Shown here piece after piece: positions 30,691 through 63,355 of a stretch of DNA of 64,000 bases. The first letter of the stretch is position 1. Each line of letters begins with the position of its first letter. The position numbers and the translations under genes are program-made. The notes below the pieces were generated by a model that saw only the letters and a program-made list of their open reading frames with translations, did no database searches and was not told the origin of the DNA. Origin of the DNA: Promethearchaeota archaeon. GTDB lineage: Archaea > Asgardarchaeota > Lokiarchaeia > Sigyniarchaeales > SOKP01. The DNA lies in assembly GCA_019894975.1 (NCBI GenBank), contig JAGXNO010000007.1, positions 30,270 to 94,269 on the forward strand, given 5' to 3'.

Positions 30691-30841
30691 CTATTTCACT
30701 CAGATTTATTAGTAGTATTTTTTAATTAAATATGTGAAAATTAAACGTAAATCCTTATATAATTTTACTAATAAATTTTGGACTAAAAGGAGATGACTAA
30801 GGTCTCTTGAATTTTAAACTATCCGTAGAATTAGCAGGTAA

Positions 30842-39808: not shown

Positions 39809-41527
39809 TCACTCGAATTTCCAAGGTTTTTGTTTTTTAAGTCTATAAGCTTTTTCGGCATATTGTAACATCATACGGTGGGTGTTAAAATAAGCTGCCA
39901 ATGAGATTGCATTTATCTGCCTAAAAATCCATTCATCATGATTCATGTAAGTTGGGATAACCTCATTTTCTAGTATCTCATACAGTGCATTGGCATCTAA
40001 ATCCCAATCATTTGATACACCAGGATCTTCTGGATTTGAATCATCAGGTCCGATCCCCCAACCAGCTAAATGGTTCATTTTATATCCTTCTAACCACCAA
40101 CCATCTTGAACCGATAAATTTAAAACACCATTAAGTGCTGCCTTCATCCCACTTGTACCGCTAGCTTCACGATATCTCTCTGGAGTATTTAACCAAATAT
40201 CTACTCCCGAAACTAACATATGAGCTAGGTCCATGTTATAATTCTCCATCATTACAACTTTCACACCGTAATTGTCATATAGATACTCACCGGCTTCATG
40301 GATTTTTTGAATATACTCTTTTCCCATTTGGTCTTTTGGATGAGCTTTTCCCGCAAAGATAAATTGTATATTATTTTTGCAGATTTTACCTATTCTATCA
40401 ATATCATGAAAGATTAGTGTAGCTCTTTTATATGTCGCAAACCTTCGTGCAAAACCAATAGTAATCATTTCCTCATCTAATAAATTCCAGGAATGTCCTT
40501 TTTGATAGGATATTAAGTTGAATTTATTTTTGATGTGTGCATCGAAGATATCTAATGGATCTAACACCACCGCATTTTCCAAAATCGAAGGATTTGCTCT
40601 CCAATTGGGCCATTTTCTGCCAAAGACCTTACGAATTGGTTTAGAAACCCAAAAAGGTAAATGAATTCCATTAGTTATATGATCGATTTCATATTGTGGA
40701 AACATTTTCCTTGAGATATCACCATGTTTCTTAGCAACTCCATTTCTATATCTGGAGAGAGCCATTCCAAGAAAAGTCATATTAAATTCTCCTTTATCGT
40801 CGGCAAGTTTCTTAATTTCAGCAGGCATTCTATTTTCAAAGACTTTATCGACTAACTCTTGTTTAAAACGATCATGACCGGCAGGTACAGGAGTATGGGT
40901 TGTAAATACTACTTTTTCTTTTACCTTCTCAATATCACCATTTAACATGTTATAAAGCTCAACCATAGCGAATGAACCATGTCCTTCATTAAGGTGATAA
41001 GTTTGAATGTTATCATAACCTAAAGATTTCAATAGTTTAACTCCCCCAATTCCTAATATCATTTCCTGAACTATTCTATTCCATCTTGAAGTAGAATCAT
41101 AAAGAGAGCCAGTCATTTTCTTCACCCAATCTTCATTTACCTCGATATCAGTGGTTAATAAATATATAGGCAAAACATGACCAGATTGACCAATTACATT
41201 ATATTGCCAGGCTGAAACTTTTACGTCCTTATTTTCTATCTTCATGCTAATTGGTCGAGGAATCCTATCGAATTCATAAAAAAAATTCCATTCAATCTCT
41301 CTTTCTTTCTGTTCGCCAAACTCATTAAAAAATTGGTAAAAATAGCCAGAACTATAGCATAAGCAGATCCCCACCATAGGAAGTTCTAAGTCTGCAGAGG
41401 ATCTAATAGTATCCCCCGATAACACACCTAGACCACCACTATATGTAGGGATATTACTATCGACACCTATCTCCATTGAGATATACGCTACAGTAGTATT
41501 TTTTTTTAGATCTTCATCAACATTCAT
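39809..41527 (-). CDS. glgP: Alpha-glucan (glycogen) phosphorylase
   Basis: YSGGLGVL, HLNEGH, FTTHTP, ARRFATYKR, GKAHP and EASGTSGMK. Confidence 0.95.
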   Translation of the reverse strand: MNVDEDLKKNTTVAYISMEIGVDSNIPTYSGGLGVLSGDTIRSSADLELPMVGICLCYSSGYFYQFFNEFGEQKEREIEWNFFYEFDRIPRPISMKIENKDVKVSAWQYNVIGQSGHVLPIYLLTTDIEVNEDWVKKMTGSLYDSTSRWNRIVQEMILGIGGVKLLKSLGYDNIQTYHLNEGHGSFAMVELYNMLNGDIEKVKEKVVFTTHTPVPAGHDRFKQELVDKVFENRMPAEIKKLADDKGEFNMTFLGMALSRYRNGVAKKHGDISRKMFPQYEIDHITNGIHLPFWVSKPIRKVFGRKWPNWRANPSILENAVVLDPLDIFDAHIKNKFNLISYQKGHSWNLLDEEMITIGFARRFATYKRATLIFHDIDRIGKICKNNIQFIFAGKAHPKDQMGKEYIQKIHEAGEYLYDNYGVKVVMMENYNMDLAHMLVSGVDIWLNTPERYREASGTSGMKAALNGVLNLSVQDGWWLEGYKMNHLAGWGIGPDDSNPEDPGVSNDWDLDANALYEILENEVIPTYMNHDEWIFRQINAISLAAYFNTHRMMLQYAEKAYRLKKQKPWKFE

Positions 41528-54512: not shown

Positions 54513-54605
54513 TATTGAATTTTCAGATAATTTAGTAAGGATTATCATAAATCTCTATTCTAAATTGGACTTGATTTTAGACATAATTTTTTTAGGATTT
54601 TGTTG

Positions 54606-54631
54606 AAAATTGGTCTTTATACCTTTATAGG
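54606..54631 (+). promoter_or_regulatory. Module promoter copy 1 (GGTC-N8-TATA)
   Basis: AAAATTGGTC-TTTATACC-TTTATAGG, about 40 nt upstream of ORF 54670; same spacing as three other copies. Confidence 0.55.
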
Positions 54632-54669
54632 AGTGGATTGATTATTCTTATTCCGAAGATAGTTTTTAA

Positions 54670-55140
54670 TTGTGTGAAAGAATTTTGGATAAGAGCTCCC
54701 TGATTTACAGTACCTTAGTTAATTTCATTATTGGTAAATTACCTAATTTCATACTTCTTCCAGTTTTAGATATAATATATCATTTTTATAGAATTAAATT
54801 TATTAAAAGGCAGATTAACAAAAGAATCGGTACCTTAGAGTTAATAGAATCAATCGTCCTAACTTATGACAGGATAGCAATCAAGAGAAATGACGCAAAC
54901 TTAAACTTATTAAATTTTCATCGAAATTTTAATAAAAAGGTAAATCGCTCATTATTAAAAGATAATTTACAATTATATTTATTAAGAAACTTGCTTTATA
55001 GAATTCTTAATAAGTGTCTAACTCAAGACAAAATTAGGAAATTAGTAAAAATGGAAATCCTGAAAGCACCGGAGAAGACCTTCTCAGATTTTATAGATCT
55101 TTTTAATGAATTGAGAAGGGAATTAAAGACTATAAACTAA
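54670..55140 (+). CDS. Hypothetical protein
   Basis: 156-aa ORF with a non-ATG start, directly downstream of the promoter motif and upstream of the wHTH gene; no recognisable motifs. Confidence 0.45.
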   Translation: MCERILDKSSLIYSTLVNFIIGKLPNFILLPVLDIIYHFYRIKFIKRQINKRIGTLELIESIVLTYDRIAIKRNDANLNLLNFHRNFNKKVNRSLLKDNLQLYLLRNLLYRILNKCLTQDKIRKLVKMEILKAPEKTFSDFIDLFNELRRELKTIN

Positions 55141-55191
55141 TAAGGTTGTTAAGAGAGTTATAGACACATAGATTGAAGAGATTATTCTGCT

Positions 55192-55932
55192 ATGAAAACT
55201 GAGTTTTTTTTTGAACCAATTGGAGAGGATCATCCAAGTGTTAAAAATGTTTTAGAAATAGCAGAAGAAATCATGAATAAAAACAAGGTATTAAATGTTG
55301 AAAACCTTTATAATATAGCCAAAAAACGATTGAAACTACCCCGAAATGGGCTTTTATCAATAATCCAATTTTTAATTAATAAAAAACTATTGATCGAAGG
55401 TTCGAAGTTTTCTAGAGAATCGGTTCTTTCAAATCACATTCGGAATGGAATTTTAAACTATATTAATAAGCATCCAGGAGTTCATTTTTCGGATTTGAGA
55501 AAAAGGGCTTTACCTGAGGAGATGGGAAGCTCAGGACAATTAGTATGGCATCTAGAAATGCTCCTTAAATTTAATTATATTAATAAGATTAAGGTTGGCA
55601 ATTATACCGTCTTTCTTCCGTACGATATGGATGAGGCCGAAGGAAGAACTATGTTTATGCTAAGAGATCGGATTAATTTCAAAGTAATTGAACTGCTTCT
55701 TAAGGAGAATACTGAAGCAAAATCTGAGATTTATAAAGCAATCAATGAAAAAAGAGAAGATGTCTATTATCGAATTAATAATTTATTAGATCTAAGAATC
55801 ATAATTGAAAATCCTAAATCAGTTAAAGAATTATGCATTAATCCAAATTTCAAGGAAAAAATTAGTGAATTATTCGAAACAACAAAATTATATATTGAGA
55901 AGAATTTATCTAGCAAAGAGGAAGAGGTTTAA
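55192..55932 (+). CDS. Multi-winged-helix transcriptional regulator
   Basis: RNGILNYINKHPGVHFSDL..GQLVWHLEML tandem wHTH pattern and a second VYYRINNL unit. Confidence 0.8.
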   Translation: MKTEFFFEPIGEDHPSVKNVLEIAEEIMNKNKVLNVENLYNIAKKRLKLPRNGLLSIIQFLINKKLLIEGSKFSRESVLSNHIRNGILNYINKHPGVHFSDLRKRALPEEMGSSGQLVWHLEMLLKFNYINKIKVGNYTVFLPYDMDEAEGRTMFMLRDRINFKVIELLLKENTEAKSEIYKAINEKREDVYYRINNLLDLRIIIENPKSVKELCINPNFKEKISELFETTKLYIEKNLSSKEEEV

Positions 55933-55934
55933 GG

Positions 55935-57251
55935 ATGGTATTAAATTGGAATATCGAGGTAATTTTAGATTTTATTTTTTCATTTATAATCTTAATTACT
56001 GCCTTCGTAAGTTTTATAGCCCCTAAGACTAAGAAAATCACATCCTTGTTTTATTTTCGATTAGTATTTTTAGCTTTTAGCGTTTTCTTTGTTTTTGATG
56101 GTTTGTCAATTCTTTTTATAAGCCCTTTCTTTTCTCGAATTAGCGGTATAATTCTGTTACCTCTTACTTTACTCGTTATTATAAGTATAAATTACACTTT
56201 TAGAGAAGATTATTACTCGCTAGGGCTAATAATATTTTGTGGTTTAGGAGTTTTATTAGTCTATGTAGGATTACAACCAGATTCTGTTGGAGTCTCCACA
56301 TATCTTGGTTACCCTAGAATCGATTGGAGAGGTTTGTTTAACATACTGGGAATATTGTTCAGCGGTGTAGTTTCATTTTATTTATTATATTGGGGAACAA
56401 AAACTTATTTAAAAGCTCCATTTTTAATTAAAAAGGATGCAACCATACTATTTTTAGGTATTTTATTTGCGTCAGTACTAGGAATGTTGTTTTATTTTTT
56501 GTATGTCTTTGAACCAGTTTATATTTTATTTTCCAATCTTTCAATAATCATAGGTCTTGTAGTTTTTACGATAGCTATAATAAGAGAGCCAAAACTTTTA
56601 TATATACTTCCTTTCACGGTCTTCAGAATTGTAGTAAAAGATCGTGAAGGTCGTCCTCTGTTTGATCATGATTGGTCTGAATCTAATATTAGTGAAAGGA
56701 TATTCACAGGTTTCTTAAATGCAGTACAACTCATGAGTGAAGAGGTAATGCATATTGGGGGATTATTAGATATTAACTTAGAGGAAGGAATTTTAATTTT
56801 AAAAGAATCTGATAAAACAACAGTTGGATTAGTTGCTTCAAAATCTTCAAAACTATTAAGAGATTCAGTAGTAAGTTTTACAACTGCTTTCGAAAAAAAA
56901 TTCGATCGAGAATTAAAAGCATCTGTCTCTGATATGTCCGCATATGAACCGGCGTATGAACTCATTGAAAAATATTTCTCTAATTTTCCATATAAAATAA
57001 TTAAGAATAAAAAACAACCACTTCTTCTATCAGGTAAATATCTTAGAATTCCCCCAGAGTTAGATAATAAACTTAGAAGTGTGATTACAGATGAGAAAGA
57101 ATATGAAGCTATAAAAGCAGAATTAATAAAATCTCCCCTCTCAATGCCCTCTGATTTCTTTAAATCTTATTCTGAAATGAAAGAAGAATTAGAGCAAATT
57201 TCTGGAAAGGAAACAAAATATTTAGATACAGATTCTAATGAAGATAAGTGA
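55935..57251 (+). CDS. Seven-TM membrane protein with cytoplasmic longin-like domain
   Basis: About seven hydrophobic helices ending at IIREPKLLYILPF, then RIVVKDREGRPLFDHDW..IFTGFLNAVQLMSEEV. Confidence 0.7.
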   Translation: MVLNWNIEVILDFIFSFIILITAFVSFIAPKTKKITSLFYFRLVFLAFSVFFVFDGLSILFISPFFSRISGIILLPLTLLVIISINYTFREDYYSLGLIIFCGLGVLLVYVGLQPDSVGVSTYLGYPRIDWRGLFNILGILFSGVVSFYLLYWGTKTYLKAPFLIKKDATILFLGILFASVLGMLFYFLYVFEPVYILFSNLSIIIGLVVFTIAIIREPKLLYILPFTVFRIVVKDREGRPLFDHDWSESNISERIFTGFLNAVQLMSEEVMHIGGLLDINLEEGILILKESDKTTVGLVASKSSKLLRDSVVSFTTAFEKKFDRELKASVSDMSAYEPAYELIEKYFSNFPYKIIKNKKQPLLLSGKYLRIPPELDNKLRSVITDEKEYEAIKAELIKSPLSMPSDFFKSYSEMKEELEQISGKETKYLDTDSNEDK

Positions 57252-57323
57252 TCTTTATTCAATTATGATGTTTTAAATTAAATCCTCATATTTGAAATCT
57301 TTAGGAAACTGAAAAAAATTGTA

Positions 57324-57540
57324 AAAATTTGGTCCTAATTCATTTAAATATACTGAAGATATAATGAATAATATCATAGTTTTATGATTATTTATTGGGA
57401 GAATTGTGCGAAGTCTAATGTTTTCAAAAAGATAAGTGGGAATTCTAGAAAGGTAGTCAAATTATTTCCCGTTTCTAGGGTTTAATTTGTATCTCACTTT
57501 TTTTGAAGAACAAGTTAATTAATTAGTTTCATTCATATAA
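57324..57540 (+). ncRNA. Non-coding repeat copy A: promoter plus candidate structured RNA
   Basis: Promoter at 57324-57350 followed by nested stems; homologous to 60813-61026 with compensatory changes. Confidence 0.6.
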
Positions 57541-57585
57541 GAAATCCAGAGATTGAGCCCAATTAAGTTTATAATTCAATTTGTT

Positions 57586-57612
57586 AAAATTTGGTCCTAG
57601 TCAATTTATAAA
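57586..57612 (+). promoter_or_regulatory. Module promoter copy 3, upstream of the tail-fibre-like gene
   Basis: AAAATTTGGTC-CTAGTCAA-TTTATAAA, 57 nt upstream of the ATG at 57670. Confidence 0.65.
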
Positions 57613-57669
57613 GACTAAAATGTTAGTAATTTTAAAATCTAATTTAAAAAAATAAAAAGTGATATAACA

Positions 57670-60600
57670 ATGTATAAAAACAAAATGAATAATAAGAAAT
57701 TTCTAAGCATATTGATACTTTGTCTCTTATTCTTTCCCCTTACCTTCTGGATGAATCCTGGATTTATTCGTAAAGACATAAACAATAATCTAAGAACTAG
57801 TCAATATGAATCAGATGGTCTAATTGCATTGTGGTCTGGACCCTTAAATACAATCCCAGCGGGGTGGAAACTGTGTAATGGTACCGATGGCACCATAGAC
57901 ACAACTAATCTTTTTGCTTATAGTACTGATAGTGGAGAAGCACCTGGAGACACAGGTGGTGATACAACACATAGTCATATTTACGAAACGGTACCTAGCC
58001 ACGATCATGGTGTAACTGGTACAACATATACTCCACACAGTCACACCTATCTACGACCACTTACTTACTGGCACATGGGCACGACATTATGGCCATACAA
58101 CGCTTTAGGTACTGGCACCAGCTCTACTGGTGCTGATTCTGCATCGCATAATCATGGTGGGTATACCAGCTATACAGGTCCCACACCACCTCTTTATACG
58201 GCTGAAGAAGAAAATATCCCACCCTATTACGAGATGGCATTTATCGAGAAGGAAGCAGATGATACTGCTATTCCTAGTGACCTGATTGTAATGTGGGGAG
58301 GTGATATAAGTTCTATTCCTGCAGGGTGGGAACTTTGCAATGGATCGAACGGTACACCTGATCTTCGAGATAAATTCATTCGGGGAGCCCCTCCAGGGGA
58401 AGATCCTGGAACGTTAGGTGGAACTATAGCCCATGATCACACATATACCCAAATTCCTCGACATAGACATACTATTGATTCTGGAGGTTCCTCTCATAGC
58501 CATGGAGGAGTTGCAGTGAACTCTCGCGCAGTGGGTGCTCTGATATGGACGGGAGCGACTTATATTAGAGGTTCTGGCTATACTAATTATGGTGGTTATA
58601 CTCACACACATTCTGTACCCACAATTGGGTTAACGACTAGCACAACTGCGAATACAAACAACCAACCCCCCTACTTCAAGGTTGCGTTCATAATGAATAC
58701 AGTAGTAACCGAGAATTTACCGTTGGGAGCTATTAGTATGTGGGGAGATTCAATAGCGAACATACCCTCAGGTTGGAATCAATGCACTGGAACAAGTGGT
58801 ACACCTAACATGCTTGAAAGATTTCCAAAAGGTGTAGCAACTGGAGAACAACCTGGACTTATTGGTGGAAACCCCACTCATCGTCATACCTATACGGCGG
58901 TTCCCCTACATACACACACTATTCCAACTGATCCGATGAATCATCGACACAGCATATATAGAGTAGGCGGTACAGAAACTTCACCCGATGGGTCTTTAGA
59001 CTGTTGGTGGCGTGATGATGGATATACTTCCACAACAGCTTCTAGTAATCCTTCTCATAATCATGACATAAATCCTTTCGGTTCTACACCATGTTATACT
59101 GCGTATGATAATAGTCTTCCCTCATATGTTAAGCTCATTTATATACAAAAGGGTCAATCTACAGGGAATCCAACTCCTGCAAATGGAGCTACAGATATCA
59201 ACTATAACCCTACATTATCTGTGTTTGTAATTGACTTAGAAGGAGATGATTTAACCGTGTCATTTTATGATGCTTCTGATGATAGCCTAATAGGCTCAGA
59301 CATTGTTACAGGTGGGAATGGCACAGCTTCAGAAATCTGGTCGGACCTCTCAAGTGATACGGTCTATTCGTGGTATATAAAAACTGACGATGGGGGACCT
59401 TTAGTTCAATCTGCTACATGGTCATTTACTACAAATTACGAGCCTGATGCCCCCACAAACCCAACTCCTAATGATGGGGCTACAGATATTAATTTCAACC
59501 CTACATTAAGCGTGGACGTATTTGATAACGACGGAGATATTATGAACGTGTCGTTTTATGATGCTTCTGATGATAGCCTAATAGGATGGGAATATATTTT
59601 TGGAGGTAGCGGTACAGCTTCAGCAACCTGGTCGGGACTCACAAATGATACGATCTTTTCATGGTATGCAAAATCCGATGATGGGTTAAGTATAGTTCAA
59701 TCTGCTACATGGTCATTTACTACAAATTACGCGCCCGATGTTCCCATAAATCCAACTCCTAGTGATGGGGCTATTGATGTTAATTACAGCCCTACATTAA
59801 GCGTGGATGTATTTGATAATGATGGAGATGATTTGACTGTGTCATTTTATAATGCTTCTGATGATAGTCTAATTGATTCTGAGCTTGTTATTGGAGGGAA
59901 CGGTACCGCCTATGTATTGTGGTCAGGATTATTGCCGGGAAACATCCATTCATGGTATACTACAGCTTATGATGGGTTAAACATAGGACAATCTGCTACA
60001 TGGTCATTTACTACAAATTACGAGCCTGATGCCCCCACAAACCCAACTCCTAATGATGGGGCTACTGATATTAGTGACGACCCTACCCTAAGCGTGGACG
60101 TATTTGATTTCGACGGAGATATTATGAACGTGTCGTTTTATGATGCTTCTGATGATAGCTTAATTGATTCTGAGCTTATTTTAGGAGGGAGCGGTACCGC
60201 TTCGGTAACCTGGACGGGACTCTCAAGTATTACGCCCTATTCATGGTACGCAATATCCGATGATGGGTTAAGTGCAATTCAATCTGCTACATGGTCATTT
60301 ACTACTGGGGAATGGATAGAAAATCACCTGCCACAAGTGACAAACCCAACTCCTAATAATGGGGCTACTGATATTGGTGACGACCCTACCCTAAGCGTGG
60401 ACGTATTTGATGAAGACGGGGATACCGTAACAGTAACATTTTATAATGCATCCGATAATAGTGAAATAGGCTCAGACATTGTTACAGGCGGGAGTGGAAC
60501 AGCTTCAGTAACCTGGTCGGGAGTAACAAGTGATATGGTCTGTCAATGGTATGTTAGAGCTAATGATGGGAAGGGTGCAACAGAATCTGCAACATGGACA

Positions 60601-60732
60601 TTTTTAACTACTGTTACTAGTACACCTCCTGGTATTCCACTACTCGGTTTAGTTCCATTAGGCTTAATCGTAATCGGAACAACAGGGATACTATCTGTGA
60701 TAACTTATCTGAGACGCAAAAGACTAGAGTGA
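57670..60732 (+). CDS. Cell-surface protein: signal peptide, three phage tail-collar/fibre domains, five Ig/FN3-like repeats and a C-terminal sorting/TM anchor
   Basis: Three copies of I.MW.G....IP.GW..C.G..GTP.L...F..G with HxH motifs and a PPY...FI closing motif; five ~97-aa repeats; PGIP-hydrophobic-RRKR tail. Confidence 0.85.
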   Translation: MYKNKMNNKKFLSILILCLLFFPLTFWMNPGFIRKDINNNLRTSQYESDGLIALWSGPLNTIPAGWKLCNGTDGTIDTTNLFAYSTDSGEAPGDTGGDTTHSHIYETVPSHDHGVTGTTYTPHSHTYLRPLTYWHMGTTLWPYNALGTGTSSTGADSASHNHGGYTSYTGPTPPLYTAEEENIPPYYEMAFIEKEADDTAIPSDLIVMWGGDISSIPAGWELCNGSNGTPDLRDKFIRGAPPGEDPGTLGGTIAHDHTYTQIPRHRHTIDSGGSSHSHGGVAVNSRAVGALIWTGATYIRGSGYTNYGGYTHTHSVPTIGLTTSTTANTNNQPPYFKVAFIMNTVVTENLPLGAISMWGDSIANIPSGWNQCTGTSGTPNMLERFPKGVATGEQPGLIGGNPTHRHTYTAVPLHTHTIPTDPMNHRHSIYRVGGTETSPDGSLDCWWRDDGYTSTTASSNPSHNHDINPFGSTPCYTAYDNSLPSYVKLIYIQKGQSTGNPTPANGATDINYNPTLSVFVIDLEGDDLTVSFYDASDDSLIGSDIVTGGNGTASEIWSDLSSDTVYSWYIKTDDGGPLVQSATWSFTTNYEPDAPTNPTPNDGATDINFNPTLSVDVFDNDGDIMNVSFYDASDDSLIGWEYIFGGSGTASATWSGLTNDTIFSWYAKSDDGLSIVQSATWSFTTNYAPDVPINPTPSDGAIDVNYSPTLSVDVFDNDGDDLTVSFYNASDDSLIDSELVIGGNGTAYVLWSGLLPGNIHSWYTTAYDGLNIGQSATWSFTTNYEPDAPTNPTPNDGATDISDDPTLSVDVFDFDGDIMNVSFYDASDDSLIDSELILGGSGTASVTWTGLSSITPYSWYAISDDGLSAIQSATWSFTTGEWIENHLPQVTNPTPNNGATDIGDDPTLSVDVFDEDGDTVTVTFYNASDNSEIGSDIVTGGSGTASVTWSGVTSDMVCQWYVRANDGKGATESATWTFLTTVTSTPPGIPLLGLVPLGLIVIGTTGILSVITYLRRKRLE
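59167..60612 (+). repeat. Five tandem intragenic repeats of about 291 bp
   Basis: CCAACTCCT anchors at 59170, 59461, 59752, 60043 and 60346 (spacings 291, 291, 291, 303). Confidence 0.92.
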
Positions 60733-60750
60733 AAATATTTTATCTAAATA

Positions 60751-60790
60751 ATTTTTTTTCTTTTTTTTATATTTCTCTTTAAATTTTTTG
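60751..60790 (+). terminator. Oligo-T archaeal terminator
   Basis: ATTTTTTTTCTTTTTTTTATATTTCTCTTT shortly after the stop at 60732. Confidence 0.6.
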
Positions 60791-60812
60791 ATAATATAAA
60801 ATTGAGATGTTT

Positions 60813-61026
60813 AAAATTGGTCCTAATGACTTTAAATATACTGAAGATATAGGGAATTATATAACAATAAATTAATATTTATTGGGAGAATTGAGCGAAA
60901 TCTAATGTTTTCAAAAATTAATGAGGAAATAAAGGAAAAATAGTAGGTATATTTCAATATTTTATTTATTATCTAATCCTCATATTTTTTGAAGAACAAG
61001 CGAATTATCTAGTTCAATTTCTATAA
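60813..61026 (+). ncRNA. Non-coding repeat copy B: promoter plus candidate structured RNA
   Basis: Promoter at 60813-60838 with the same conserved blocks and stems as copy A; no + strand gene follows it. Confidence 0.6.
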
Positions 61027-61084
61027 TTCTTATGTATTTTAACCGTAAAGAGTAACCATAAACAATTTCTATTTTTTTTTTTAC

Positions 61085-61666
61085 TTATTGTATCTTTCTC
61101 AAATAATAACCCATATCTACTAAGTTTAAAGCAATTATTTCTCCGGGGTTAAGACTTGCTAGGTCTTGTTTGTTTATCAACGACTGTGCTATTGCACAGA
61201 TTTCATTCTTCTCATTATTAATTACTAAAAAGTCATTTTTCCTTAAGTGGAAAGGGATATTTATCGCGTTGCCTTTTTTAATATCATTCCCATAAAGAAC
61301 AGATTTTTCCCCATCGATATCAATAACTAGAATATGATCCTGGATTAAGAGTTCCCTATTTAAGAGAAATTCTGCTCCTTCAAGGCTTAAACGAAAACTT
61401 TCCTTATTAAAAAAACCAAAATATAACCCAATGGAGGTAATTTGGATGTCTTTATCAAATTTTTCAATAATTTTTGGATGTTCTGGGGATAATAAAAAAA
61501 TTGAGGGATTTAAACCTCTAGAACTAGTCTTATCAAAAGAAATGTATAATCTCTCTTGATAATTTTTTATGAATATAGCAGAATTTTGACAAATTTTGTC
61601 TAGAGAATTCAATATAATAGATTTTTCGAACTCATTTAGGATTCTGAAGTCATTCCGTTCTGTCAT
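61085..61666 (-). CDS. NIP7-like pre-PUA/PUA ribosome biogenesis protein
   Basis: GLYFG..FRLSLEG, EKSVLYGNDI and NLVDMGYYLR. Confidence 0.85.
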   Translation of the reverse strand: MTERNDFRILNEFEKSIILNSLDKICQNSAIFIKNYQERLYISFDKTSSRGLNPSIFLLSPEHPKIIEKFDKDIQITSIGLYFGFFNKESFRLSLEGAEFLLNRELLIQDHILVIDIDGEKSVLYGNDIKKGNAINIPFHLRKNDFLVINNEKNEICAIAQSLINKQDLASLNPGEIIALNLVDMGYYLRKIQ

Positions 61667-61743: not shown

Positions 61744-62457
61744 ATGGGGATCCGAAAGATAGAAGATGAGATTGATTTAAAGGAAGCGATGAAAAAGAAA
61801 GCTGCCGAATTGAAAATGAAAGAAATGGAGTCGAAAGCTTCAGTCGAAAAATTTACAAAAGATCAATTACGTGAGCTCGCAAAAAAGCACGGAGTCTTAC
61901 TCGCCTTAACTCCAGAATTAAGAGAGGAAGTAAAAGAATTACAAAAGAAATATAATATCCCATCTTCAAAGATTATCACAGAACAGATAACCGAACATGA
62001 TGTATTGCGTAAGTTTTCTAAAATTGATCATGAAAAATTAGGAATGCTTGCATATCAAAGAGTTTTAATGAGTAAAGAAGAAACTGGTGGTATAATACCA
62101 TTATCAGAAGTGTTTGAATTAATAAATACGGGCATATTAAAAGGGAATGTTGAGGTAAAAGATGTTGACAAAGCTTTAAAGATTTTAAATAAGTCAAAAG
62201 TTATTGAAGAGATTATTCAATTAGAATCTGGTGCTACAATAGTAAGATTCTTTCCAATTCAGTATACGGGGGATGAATCTAAAGTTGTTGAATTAGCAAA
62301 AGAAAAAGGCATACTCACTCTAGAAGTTGTATGCACAGGATTGGAGTGGTCCCAAGATCGTGCTCTTCACGCTTTAGAATCACTCGAAAAGAGTGGAGTT
62401 GCAAAGTATAGAGAAAGTATCTTAACAGGGAAACAATGGTATTTTCCATCGTTATAA
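61744..62457 (+). CDS. ESCRT-II Vps22/Vps36-like (EAP30 domain) protein
   Basis: MGIRKI N-terminal basic helix, ETGGIIPLSEV and LEWSQDRALHALESL winged helices; next to Vps25 and Vps4. Confidence 0.85.
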   Translation: MGIRKIEDEIDLKEAMKKKAAELKMKEMESKASVEKFTKDQLRELAKKHGVLLALTPELREEVKELQKKYNIPSSKIITEQITEHDVLRKFSKIDHEKLGMLAYQRVLMSKEETGGIIPLSEVFELINTGILKGNVEVKDVDKALKILNKSKVIEEIIQLESGATIVRFFPIQYTGDESKVVELAKEKGILTLEVVCTGLEWSQDRALHALESLEKSGVAKYRESILTGKQWYFPSL

Positions 62458-62470
62458 CGACAAAAAAGTT

Positions 62471-63355
62471 TTATTCTAATTTTATTTTAAAAGCAAGTTG
62501 TCCGTTTTCTAATTTAAGAACTTTGGCTCTACGATTTTTGGCTAAGATTTTAAAAATTTCTTCTAAATCCTCTAATGGTAGATTACTAAAATCTTCTTGC
62601 TCTGCCTCCCTTAGTTCATATATCATAATAGGCTCAAGTTTTCCATTATCGTAAGCCCATTTATATATTTCATCAGACCAGACTTCAAGTGTTTTCCAGT
62701 ATACTCTCAACTTTTCCTTCTTCTTGGAGAGCCATGCCCCTTGTTTTTGACTAATTAATTCTTCAGCAAGTTCTAGAATATATTTTTCACGTTTGGTAAA
62801 ATTTGAAAATGGTTTTTCTGAATTTAATTCTCTTATATATATTATATGAAGAACAGCAAATCGCGCATAATCAAAGAGGACTTTTGCCCATTCTGTTTTC
62901 CATGAGGTGTAATCATTCTTCTGTTTATTCTTATCAGGCATAGTATACATAAATTTTTTGCGCTCTTCTTCTAACCAAGGATAAGCATTTAACAATTTTT
63001 CGTAAGAGCTTAACTTTTTTTCTAATAATCCCTTTTCTCCTATTATTTCTTTTTCAAGTTCTTGTAGATCGGCTTCAATTTGATCAGCATGCTGTTTGTA
63101 CAATTTGCTATCTATTTCCCCTGCTTGAGAACTTAAAACATTTTCAAGTTTATCAAATTCTTCCTCGATATAGGTTAAATCTGCAATTTTAAAATCTGAT
63201 TCATCTATAATTTGCCTTTCTAATGCTTCTTTCTCAAGGTCTTCTTTTTCTTTTTTTATTTCTCTTAATCGTGCTAGTTCTTTTCTTAATTCTTCTAAAT
63301 CTTTCGTTGCATTTTCTTTAGTTGAATTTTCTCGTTGTCTTTCCATGTCGATCAT
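62471..63355 (-). CDS. ESCRT-II Vps25-like protein with N-terminal coiled coil
   Basis: YTMP..SWKTEWAKVL and YWKTLEVWSDEIYKWAYDNG match the Vps25 pattern. Confidence 0.8.
   Translation of the reverse strand: MIDMERQRENSTKENATKDLEELRKELARLREIKKEKEDLEKEALERQIIDESDFKIADLTYIEEEFDKLENVLSSQAGEIDSKLYKQHADQIEADLQELEKEIIGEKGLLEKKLSSYEKLLNAYPWLEEERKKFMYTMPDKNKQKNDYTSWKTEWAKVLFDYARFAVLHIIYIRELNSEKPFSNFTKREKYILELAEELISQKQGAWLSKKKEKLRVYWKTLEVWSDEIYKWAYDNGKLEPIMIYELREAEQEDFSNLPLEDLEEIFKILAKNRRAKVLKLENGQLAFKIKLE

Follow-up and report, generated by a model that had tools for sequence, protein, structure and literature searches.

Four promoters of one archaeal locus have the same sequence in front of their TATA boxes, which raises the question whether they form a regulon of their own and which protein would read the common element. 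The locus belongs to a Promethearchaeota archaeon (Lokiarchaeia, Sigyniarchaeales; assembly GCA_019894975.1 of 3.93 Mb in 175 contigs, 31.6% G+C, estimated contamination 8.55%). It lies within a stretch of 64,000 nt of contig JAGXNO010000007.1, which is called the window in the following and to which coordinates given without a contig name refer. A first-pass annotation had placed the four promoters before an operon of a small open reading frame (ORF156), a winged-helix protein and a seven-transmembrane (7TM) protein, before a short transcript A, before the gene of a 1020-aa surface protein and before a second short transcript B, and these targets are correct. We find that the box is a conserved cis-element which is private to the locus and not a generic promoter. 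The element, its rarity and its conservation are established by the comparisons below, as is its linkage to the winged-helix/7TM gene pair. We lean towards the view that the four sites are the promoters of one small locus-private regulon which is likely read by the operon's own winged-helix protein.

The promoter box

The earlier annotation had described GGTC and, separated from it by exactly 8 nt, TTTATA or TTTAAA; this spacing holds at each of the four sites, with AAAATTGGTC starting at 54606 and 60813 and AAAATTTGGTC at 57324 and 57586. Repeat finding and alignment show that the common sequence is longer than this motif and amounts to a 29-nt box, TGTWNAAAWTTGGTCYTWRT-N3-TTTAWA, which opens with TGT at 54601, 57320, 57582 and 60808. 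The boxes are all on the plus strand and fall into three classes. Class a is the promoter of the operon (54601..54629, TGTTGAAAATTGGTCTTTATACCTTTATA), a GGTCT variant with a conserved GG after the TATA box. Class b comprises the promoters of transcript A (57320..57348, TGTAAAAATTTGGTCCTAATTCATTTAAA) and of transcript B (60808..60836, TGTTTAAAATTGGTCCTAATGACTTTAAA), and class c is the promoter of the surface-protein gene (57582..57610, TGTTAAAATTTGGTCCTAGTCAATTTATA). Two matrices were used, one made from the window's four sites and the other from 39 orthologous sites including these four. The four-site matrix scores the boxes of the window at 35.0-37.7 bits; with the 39-site matrix they reach 40.6 (operon), 33.9 (transcript A), 32.9 (surface-protein gene) and 29.0 bits (transcript B).

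The upstream part of the box is an element of 20 nt, TGTAGAAATTTGGTCCTAAT, which precedes the archaeal TATA box TTTAWA. Its core is an imperfect inverted repeat, ATTWGG-T-CCWAAT, the arrangement that a dimer, or two like domains, would read. Since the element stops 3 nt short of the TATA box and reaches about 23-24 nt upstream of it, most of it would lie beyond the 6-7-nt recognition element (BRE) of transcription factor B (TFB). The placement relative to BRE and start follows the promoter register predicted from the sequence.

Rarity of the box

The first-pass annotation itself had named the objection that the motif might be a generic promoter element. In the genome scan this objection fails, as none of 362 candidate TATA boxes upstream of long ORFs has GGTC at -12 and the full box is almost confined to the locus. 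An enrichment of TTTAWA at distances of about 30 and about 55 nt upstream of long ORFs marks it as the TATA box of this organism. The bases upstream of the generic candidates are merely A/T-rich with a mild preference for A (A 0.37-0.48). At the boxed promoters CTWAT-N3 stands upstream of the TATA box, and the BRE consensus of the genome is too faint to grade these promoters as weak.

The bare pattern GGTC-N8-TTTAWA is found six times in the window against 0.67 expected (standard deviation 0.88; 0 of 100 shuffles reach six). The two additional matches, at 40862 (minus strand, within a 572-aa ORF) and at 30801 (plus strand, intergenic), are without the upstream half. Genome-wide there are 34 matches to the bare pattern and only four to AAWTTGGTC-N8-TTTAWA, all four at this locus, and for TTGGTC-Nx-TTTAWA a spacing of 8 is the commonest (11 matches versus 1 to 7 at spacings 4-13).

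Beyond the window the four-site matrix scores best on the small contig C35 (27.4 bits), followed by 18.4 bits. The 39-site matrix finds six sites of at least 22.7 bits in the 3.9-Mb assembly, of which two are on C35 and the others here, and the best remaining site has 18.0 bits; a threshold of 18 bits is reached once outside this locus and C35. The regulon had been called self-contained, which has to be qualified for the two further sites on C35. This contig of 1368 bp opens with the 3′ end of a 7TM-like gene, behind which come a box (156), a hairpin-type leader of a class found in other species, a weaker box (301) and the gene of an LVIVD-repeat surface protein. Given the estimated contamination C35 may be a fragment of a co-binned relative, or it may be a second module of this organism.

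Near three distant winged-helix paralogs (contigs C151, C85 and C11) no box of at least 12 bits was found. A paralog of the surface protein is encoded on contig C94 (37323-39185; 597 aa aligned at 50% identity) and lacks an upstream box; the box thus travels with the locus and not with the gene family. In a metagenome scan with the 20-nt core alone, three of 80 loci among the matches listed carry the upstream half of the box, whereas the remaining 77 come from unrelated DNA and match by chance. The leader block described below was flagged in two of the three versus none of the 77.

Conservation and linkage to the winged-helix/7TM gene pair

Orthologs of the 7TM protein were searched in 36 congeners and are present in 17 of them at E 3.0e-108 or better; 15 orthologous loci could be retrieved with wide flanks. 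The gene order is kept in these 15. CYTH (minus strand) and an RsmB-type methyltransferase are followed by box a with the small ORF, the winged-helix gene and the 7TM gene, then by box b, a short spacer and box c with a large gene or with nothing. The far end is formed by NIP7 (minus strand) and by the genes of the endosomal sorting complex required for transport (ESCRT), namely ESCRT-II EAP30, Vps25 (minus strand) and Vps4 (minus strand). The box stands at the same three places, and in 14 of the 15 loci a class-b site is found at a distance of 60-100 nt downstream of the 7TM stop codon. The logo of the 39 sites has almost no information in the flanks and is high across TTTGTAGAAATTTGGTC[C/T]T[A/T]AT-N3-TTTATA. 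Class a, with the consensus GGTCT.TAT and then TTTATAGG, is kept in the 15 loci; the downstream boxes of classes b and c read GGTCCTWAT, and the two types stay distinct across species.

For relatives of the winged-helix protein one genome per species was scanned, which gave 51 loci, almost all of them from records named Promethearchaeota. Of these loci 49 have one or more sites that reach 18 bits. The 51 loci comprise 474 kb with 92 such sites, and all but three occupy stereotyped positions relative to the winged-helix gene: -609 to -296 or +2040 to +2485 on the gene strand and, in paralog loci, -271 to -99 on the opposite strand. The paralogous winged-helix/7TM pairs hence have their box about 100-270 nt before the winged-helix gene, facing a divergent gene, and these divergent promoters carry the variants TCAGTCC, TTAGTCC and TCGTTCC. 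Among the genes faced by paralog boxes are those for solute-binding proteins with ATP-binding cassette (ABC) permeases, a xylose-isomerase-like TIM-barrel enzyme, beta-propeller proteins and others. Most box variants of the family retain the GTCC core, with ATCC or TTCC in some paralog boxes.

Independent of any matrix is a fixed-pattern search across 37 congeners with the reversed pattern as control. The strict pattern gave 52 matches versus 31 for the control, and 29 of the 52 are at operon loci. These account for the excess, since the remaining 23 matches correspond to the background level.

The predicted short transcripts A and B

Transcript A is predicted to run over about 130 nt from 57373 to 57504 (plus strand), with the start placed by a TATA centre 26/27 nt upstream and the end at a T7 run (57498-57504). 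Its leader block (57397..57435) reads GGGAGAAT-TGT-GCGAAGTC and is followed by ATG and a mini-ORF of 5 codons (MFSKR*). Transcript B would extend from 60861 to 60990 (plus strand), with a leader block at 60884-60902 and a mini-ORF at 60905-60943 (MFSKINEEIKEK*). A and B are diverged duplicates of each other (direct repeats D3, D4 and D6, 75-84% identity), and no copy B was found in the nearest relative retrieved.

The block, GGGAGAWT-N3-6-G[CT]GAAATC[CT] or in short form GGGAGAAT..GYGAAATC, lies 87-93 nt from the start of the box in 15 of 17 class-b sequences, and the bases between box b and the block are not conserved. This genome has only three copies of it (A, B and C35). Two near-identical species and one metagenome contig have the block as ribosome binding site region and start codon of the surface-protein gene. 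At further loci the block is followed by a mini-ORF (5 to 43 codons) which starts with MFS or MFI, or with VFS or VFA at a GTG codon. In a second class of leaders, which has no start codon, the block is closed into a hairpin, GGGAG...CTCCC, with Ts behind it.

The annotation had spoken of two RNA copies. RNAalifold with 29 leader sequences gives 0 pairs and no consensus structure, and Rfam has no match in 57300-57600 or 60800-61100, neither at the gathering score nor at E up to 5. Folds of single sequences and stems found by eye differ between clades. We read A and B as leader-like transcripts with a block similar to a ribosome binding site and a mini-ORF; their conserved part would act through its sequence, with the ribosome or a protein as its reader. 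Elsewhere in the window four weak Rfam matches (E 1.7-4.5) were rejected as chance.

What stands behind box b varies. Among 33 loci with a site at this position an ORF follows in 13 (11 surface-type genes, one truncated at the contig end and one 7TM paralog), and in the other 20 no ORF of at least 60 aa opens within 375 nt. All 20 gene-less loci keep box b and, as judged by eye, the leader block. This suggests that the short transcript is the conserved output and not the adhesin. A conserved promoter with a conserved leader and no gene behind it is an unexplained and testable object in its own right.

Transcripts A and B point toward the convergent NIP7 gene, beyond which an ESCRT-II gene follows on the same strand. 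Read-through toward NIP7 is unlikely here, because a T11 run precedes this gene. The run is on the plus strand at 61064-61074, just before the stop codon of NIP7, and could be the end of transcript B or of read-through from the surface-protein gene.

The leaders of the operon promoters contain in many species a block GGAATCCTC[CT], located 8-30 nt before the start of the first ORF. It resembles GAAATCCTCCC of the hairpin-type leaders, and one leader element may be common to all promoter classes.

The surface protein and its slot

The surface protein (57670..60732, plus strand, 1020 aa) has an N-terminal signal or anchor, phage-tail-collar-like repeats, five repeats of about 97 aa and a C-terminal transmembrane anchor. 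It matches PF07484 Collar with 31.6 bits (cut-off 24, E 1.6e-7). The ATG is found 60 nt after the TATA box and is preceded by a Shine-Dalgarno-like GTGAT. Repeat families within the gene have a period of 291 nt; at 59164-60603 five tandem copies of a 291-303-nt unit are 72-86% identical. RNA-library contigs from four metatranscriptome runs of 3 studies (90-99% likeness) cover only 57696-60781. One of these contigs joins 59251 to 59543 and skips exactly 291 nt, so environmental relatives differ in the number of repeats.

In other species the gene in this place is a different one, with fn3, Ig-like, CARDB/Kre9, CBM, beta-helix or LVIVD domains or with none assigned, and all these proteins have signal-like N-termini. 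The adhesin had been proposed as a co-regulated output; it is not the conserved one, as the gene in the slot is optional and exchangeable between species. Promoter and leader together look like a fixed expression slot with an exchangeable cargo.

The proteins of the operon

The first gene of the operon (54670..55140, plus strand) codes for 156 aa without a Pfam family. In some species its conserved C-terminal part, about 55 aa long, forms a fusion with the winged-helix protein (308-372 aa in total), and homologs of 305-380 aa with the small first ORF and the winged-helix protein in one frame were noted in several species. As both are one reading frame in these species, this suggests that the two products of the window act as one regulator.

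The candidate regulator is a triple winged-helix protein of 246 aa (55192..55932, plus strand). Residues 82-152 match PF24266 HTH_HVO_0163_N (E 6.6e-9, 36.2 bits, cut-off 31), an annotation which is also precomputed on most of its homologs. The AF2 model (pLDDT 85.4) has three tandem winged helices. In the second domain the helix SSGQL[VI]WHL, the putative recognition helix, is kept in 22 of 22 sequences compared. Foldseek returns only weak matches (E 1.6e-3 and weaker, TM-score 0.2-0.3) and no close structural relative. DNA binding by this protein is likely.

The candidate sensor is a 7TM membrane protein of 438 aa with a cytoplasmic tail of about 215 aa (55935..57251, plus strand). As a whole it has no Pfam family up to E 10. 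The AF2 model shows seven confident helices in residues 1-220 and a poorly modelled tail. Compared with ACER3 the bundle gives a VIA Z of 14.4 (root mean square deviation 3.8, 195 residues aligned), and with adhesion G-protein-coupled receptors and Ste2 Z is about 12. Z below about 13 is common for helical bundles, and we count both matches as within the noise of such bundles. The order of elements in the tail model, bb-a-bbb-a, would fit a Roadblock/longin domain at a pLDDT under 50. For the tail we found no Roadblock/longin Pfam family, only scattered unrelated matches at E 0.009 or weaker in at most three of 20 members, and no match in the PDB with a profile of 20 sequences. A weak lead comes from the ESM Atlas, with 0.81 to a cluster named Roadblock/LAMTOR2 and Fuz_longin_1 on 22% of its members.

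When the tail (residues 222-438) was co-folded with the winged-helix protein, the score was 0.56 versus 0.26 for the best control, which was graded as weak support. In the benchmark 116 of 157 solved complexes and 2 of 215 mismatches reach the mark; with a score of 0.60 or under only 18 of the 157 do so, and both of the mismatches that pass. The runs have at least 54% of their contacts in common, and the partner has a pLDDT of at least 74.

Neighbouring genes

Downstream of the module lie the genes of a NIP7-like PUA protein (61085-61666, minus strand), an EAP30/Vps22-36-like protein (61744-62457, plus strand), an ESCRT-II Vps25-like protein (62471-63355, minus strand) and Vps4 (63365 to the end of the window, minus strand). 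The Asgard ESCRT cluster thus directly adjoins the module, and this neighbourhood is kept in the congeners examined. The ESCRT-II, Vps25 and Vps4 genes agree with the placement of the genome among the Loki-type Asgard archaea.

Proposed mechanism

What binds the box, whether it activates or represses, where transcription begins and what the 7TM protein does we infer as follows. An archaeal TATA box is centred 26/27 nt before the start (PMC5512572). With this register the element would span about -53 to -34, directly upstream of the BRE and partly over it, and the four starts would fall near 54654, 57373, 57635 and 60861. The winged-helix protein would read the box at its own operon promoter, which amounts to autoregulation, and also at two or three neighbouring promoters. 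EarA, TFB-RF1 and Ptr2 bind upstream of BRE and TATA and recruit TFB or the TATA-binding protein (TBP), as the same source describes in the part available (PMC5512572). A like activator would fit here because the box sits just upstream of BRE and TATA, and we slightly favour activation by helping TFB and TBP onto the promoter over repression. The likely input is the co-transcribed 7TM protein, which would act on the winged-helix protein via its cytoplasmic tail. There would be three outputs: the operon itself via the distinct GGTCT box; the short leader-like transcript with its conserved block and mini-ORF, which would be the most conserved target; and the gene of a secreted or surface protein that occupies the slot, here the collar/Ig-repeat surface protein. 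The shared regulon proposed by the first-pass annotation stands in so far as the element is common to four promoters, almost confined to the locus and accompanies the gene pair (49 of 51 loci); the adhesin drops out as a conserved output.

Several points weigh against a regulon read by the winged-helix protein. Two of the 51 loci are without any site, and the recovery at the level of loci is partly circular, as the 39-site matrix was trained partly on species which were later scored. Covariation of regulator and operator across paralogs is uninformative with a recognition helix that is invariant in the 22 sequences. The fold matches are mixed (Pol III Rpc34, ESCRT-II Vps22, cullins, SelB WH2-4, ScpB, MarR, SarS) and include, besides DNA binders, protein scaffolds (Vps22, cullins) and an RNA binder (SelB); with ESCRT-II genes beside the winged-helix gene, a role other than in DNA binding is possible. 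The right half of the element overlaps the position of the BRE and would also suit a repressor, and there are eight TFB paralogs that could read special promoters. The RNA-library contigs match the surface-protein gene only, and assembled contigs cannot show transcription starts.

Alternative explanations

The alternative that survives best is that the element is real and conserved and is read by another factor, either a regulator encoded elsewhere or a TFB paralog with an extended BRE, the winged-helix protein being a scaffold or an RNA binder, for instance together with the 7TM protein or with ESCRT-II. We give this a small though appreciable probability. The eight TFB paralogs speak for it, and so do a winged-helix fold which resembles DNA binders no more closely than it does ESCRT-II Vps22, cullins or SelB and the ESCRT-II genes at a distance of 0.8-2.6 kb downstream. 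However, the element reaches about 24 nt upstream of the TATA box, well past a BRE of 6-7 nt, the winged-helix protein scores above the cut-off of a helix-turn-helix (HTH) family, and the box accompanies the winged-helix/7TM pair even in paralog loci away from ESCRT genes.

The TFB paralogs themselves deserve mention. In the whole genome 16 TFIIB cyclin-repeat matches fall into eight open frames of 296-323 aa, which are located on contigs C87, C98, C104, C164, C100, C135 and C11. This is a large set for an archaeon.

Could the same winged-helix protein be a repressor? On the half-site proximal to the BRE it would block TFB and be released when the 7TM protein senses its signal. The right half CCTAAT is where the BRE should be, and the operon's own box is systematically the weaker variant GGTCT. 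A weaker own operator is common in negatively autoregulated operons. To repression, too, we give a small though appreciable probability. Against it speaks that in the logo of the 39 sites the conserved element does not extend into the TATA box or the start region, and that it lies for the most part upstream of the BRE, where archaeal activators usually bind (PMC5512572).

A copying of one promoter by local duplication with no dedicated regulator, so that the likeness would be merely historical, could appeal to A and B as clear duplicates which are alike also over about 200 nt downstream and to the class-c sites, which look like duplicates of class-b sites, but it is nearly excluded by the pattern of conservation, as the operon box has only the box in common with the other promoters, the element is kept in 49 of 51 loci, and it persists where the 7TM proteins are only 42-70% identical and the adjacent intergenic bases are not kept.

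Comparison with known systems

Bacterial extracytoplasmic function (ECF) sigma and anti-sigma factors form autoregulated operons in which a protein conferring promoter specificity is encoded with a membrane sensor and a signature promoter is found at the operon and at a few nearby targets. The likeness of our module to them is one of logic only, and no homology is claimed. To our knowledge there is no sigma factor in archaea. In contrast to the ECF sigma promoters, the signature of the module is upstream of a normal TATA box, which points to an accessory factor and not to a polymerase subunit.

Among archaeal systems the EarA/fla promoter of Methanococcus maripaludis comes close, being an HTH factor with sites immediately upstream of BRE and TATA that controls genes of a cell-surface structure (PMC5512572). 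EarA helps TFB onto a promoter which needs help, the same logic as proposed here (PMC5512572). As far as the available part of that account goes, EarA differs by its four 6-bp boxes, the lack of a linked membrane sensor, its other protein family and its occurrence in Euryarchaeota (PMC5512572). The module has instead one 20-nt element with an inverted-repeat core and a fixed spacing to the TATA box, at three or four promoters of one locus.

In Pyrococcus furiosus, TFB-RF1 (PF1088) is alike in that the regulator gene is beside the target operon and that the protein recruits TFB from a site directly before a weak BRE (PMC5937170, PMC5512572). The target operon codes for an ABC transporter, which has its counterpart at paralog loci of our module. 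TFB-RF1 differs in belonging to another family and, in what these sources describe, in having no 7TM partner and no leader; binding and mechanism were demonstrated there, whereas for the module we deduce them.

Asgard fusions of Roadblock/longin domains to two-component domains point to lineage-specific signalling that joins small eukaryote-like domains with prokaryotic regulators (Liu et al. 2020, bioRxiv 10.1101/2020.10.19.343400). The part of this preprint that was available describes neither a 7TM/winged-helix pairing nor a promoter motif. In the literature on HVO_0163, on Asgard start sites and TATA boxes and on Lokiarchaeota winged-helix promoters we found no description of the module or the motif, the supplementary tables of Liu et al. 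2020 being outside this search, and we found no paper on start sites, promoter motifs or this regulator in Asgard archaea.

Significance

Asgard archaea are the closest known archaeal relatives of eukaryotes, and their gene regulation is almost unexplored. A 29-bp box and a candidate factor, linked with each other in about 50 species, make a sharply defined test case. As a wider picture, which we offer tentatively and hold to be possible rather than probable, Promethearchaeota might possess a kinase-free route from the membrane to the genes. A 7TM receptor with a small Roadblock/longin-like tail would directly control a triple winged-helix factor that reads a private 29-bp box; the most conserved product would be a leader-like transcript of about 130 nt, a surface-protein slot would be exchangeable, and paralogs of the pair would drive genes of transporters and sugar enzymes. 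If the 7TM protein indeed controls the factor, this would be a signalling architecture without a histidine kinase, and the surface proteins governed by the module would be the molecules by which syntrophic cells touch their partners.

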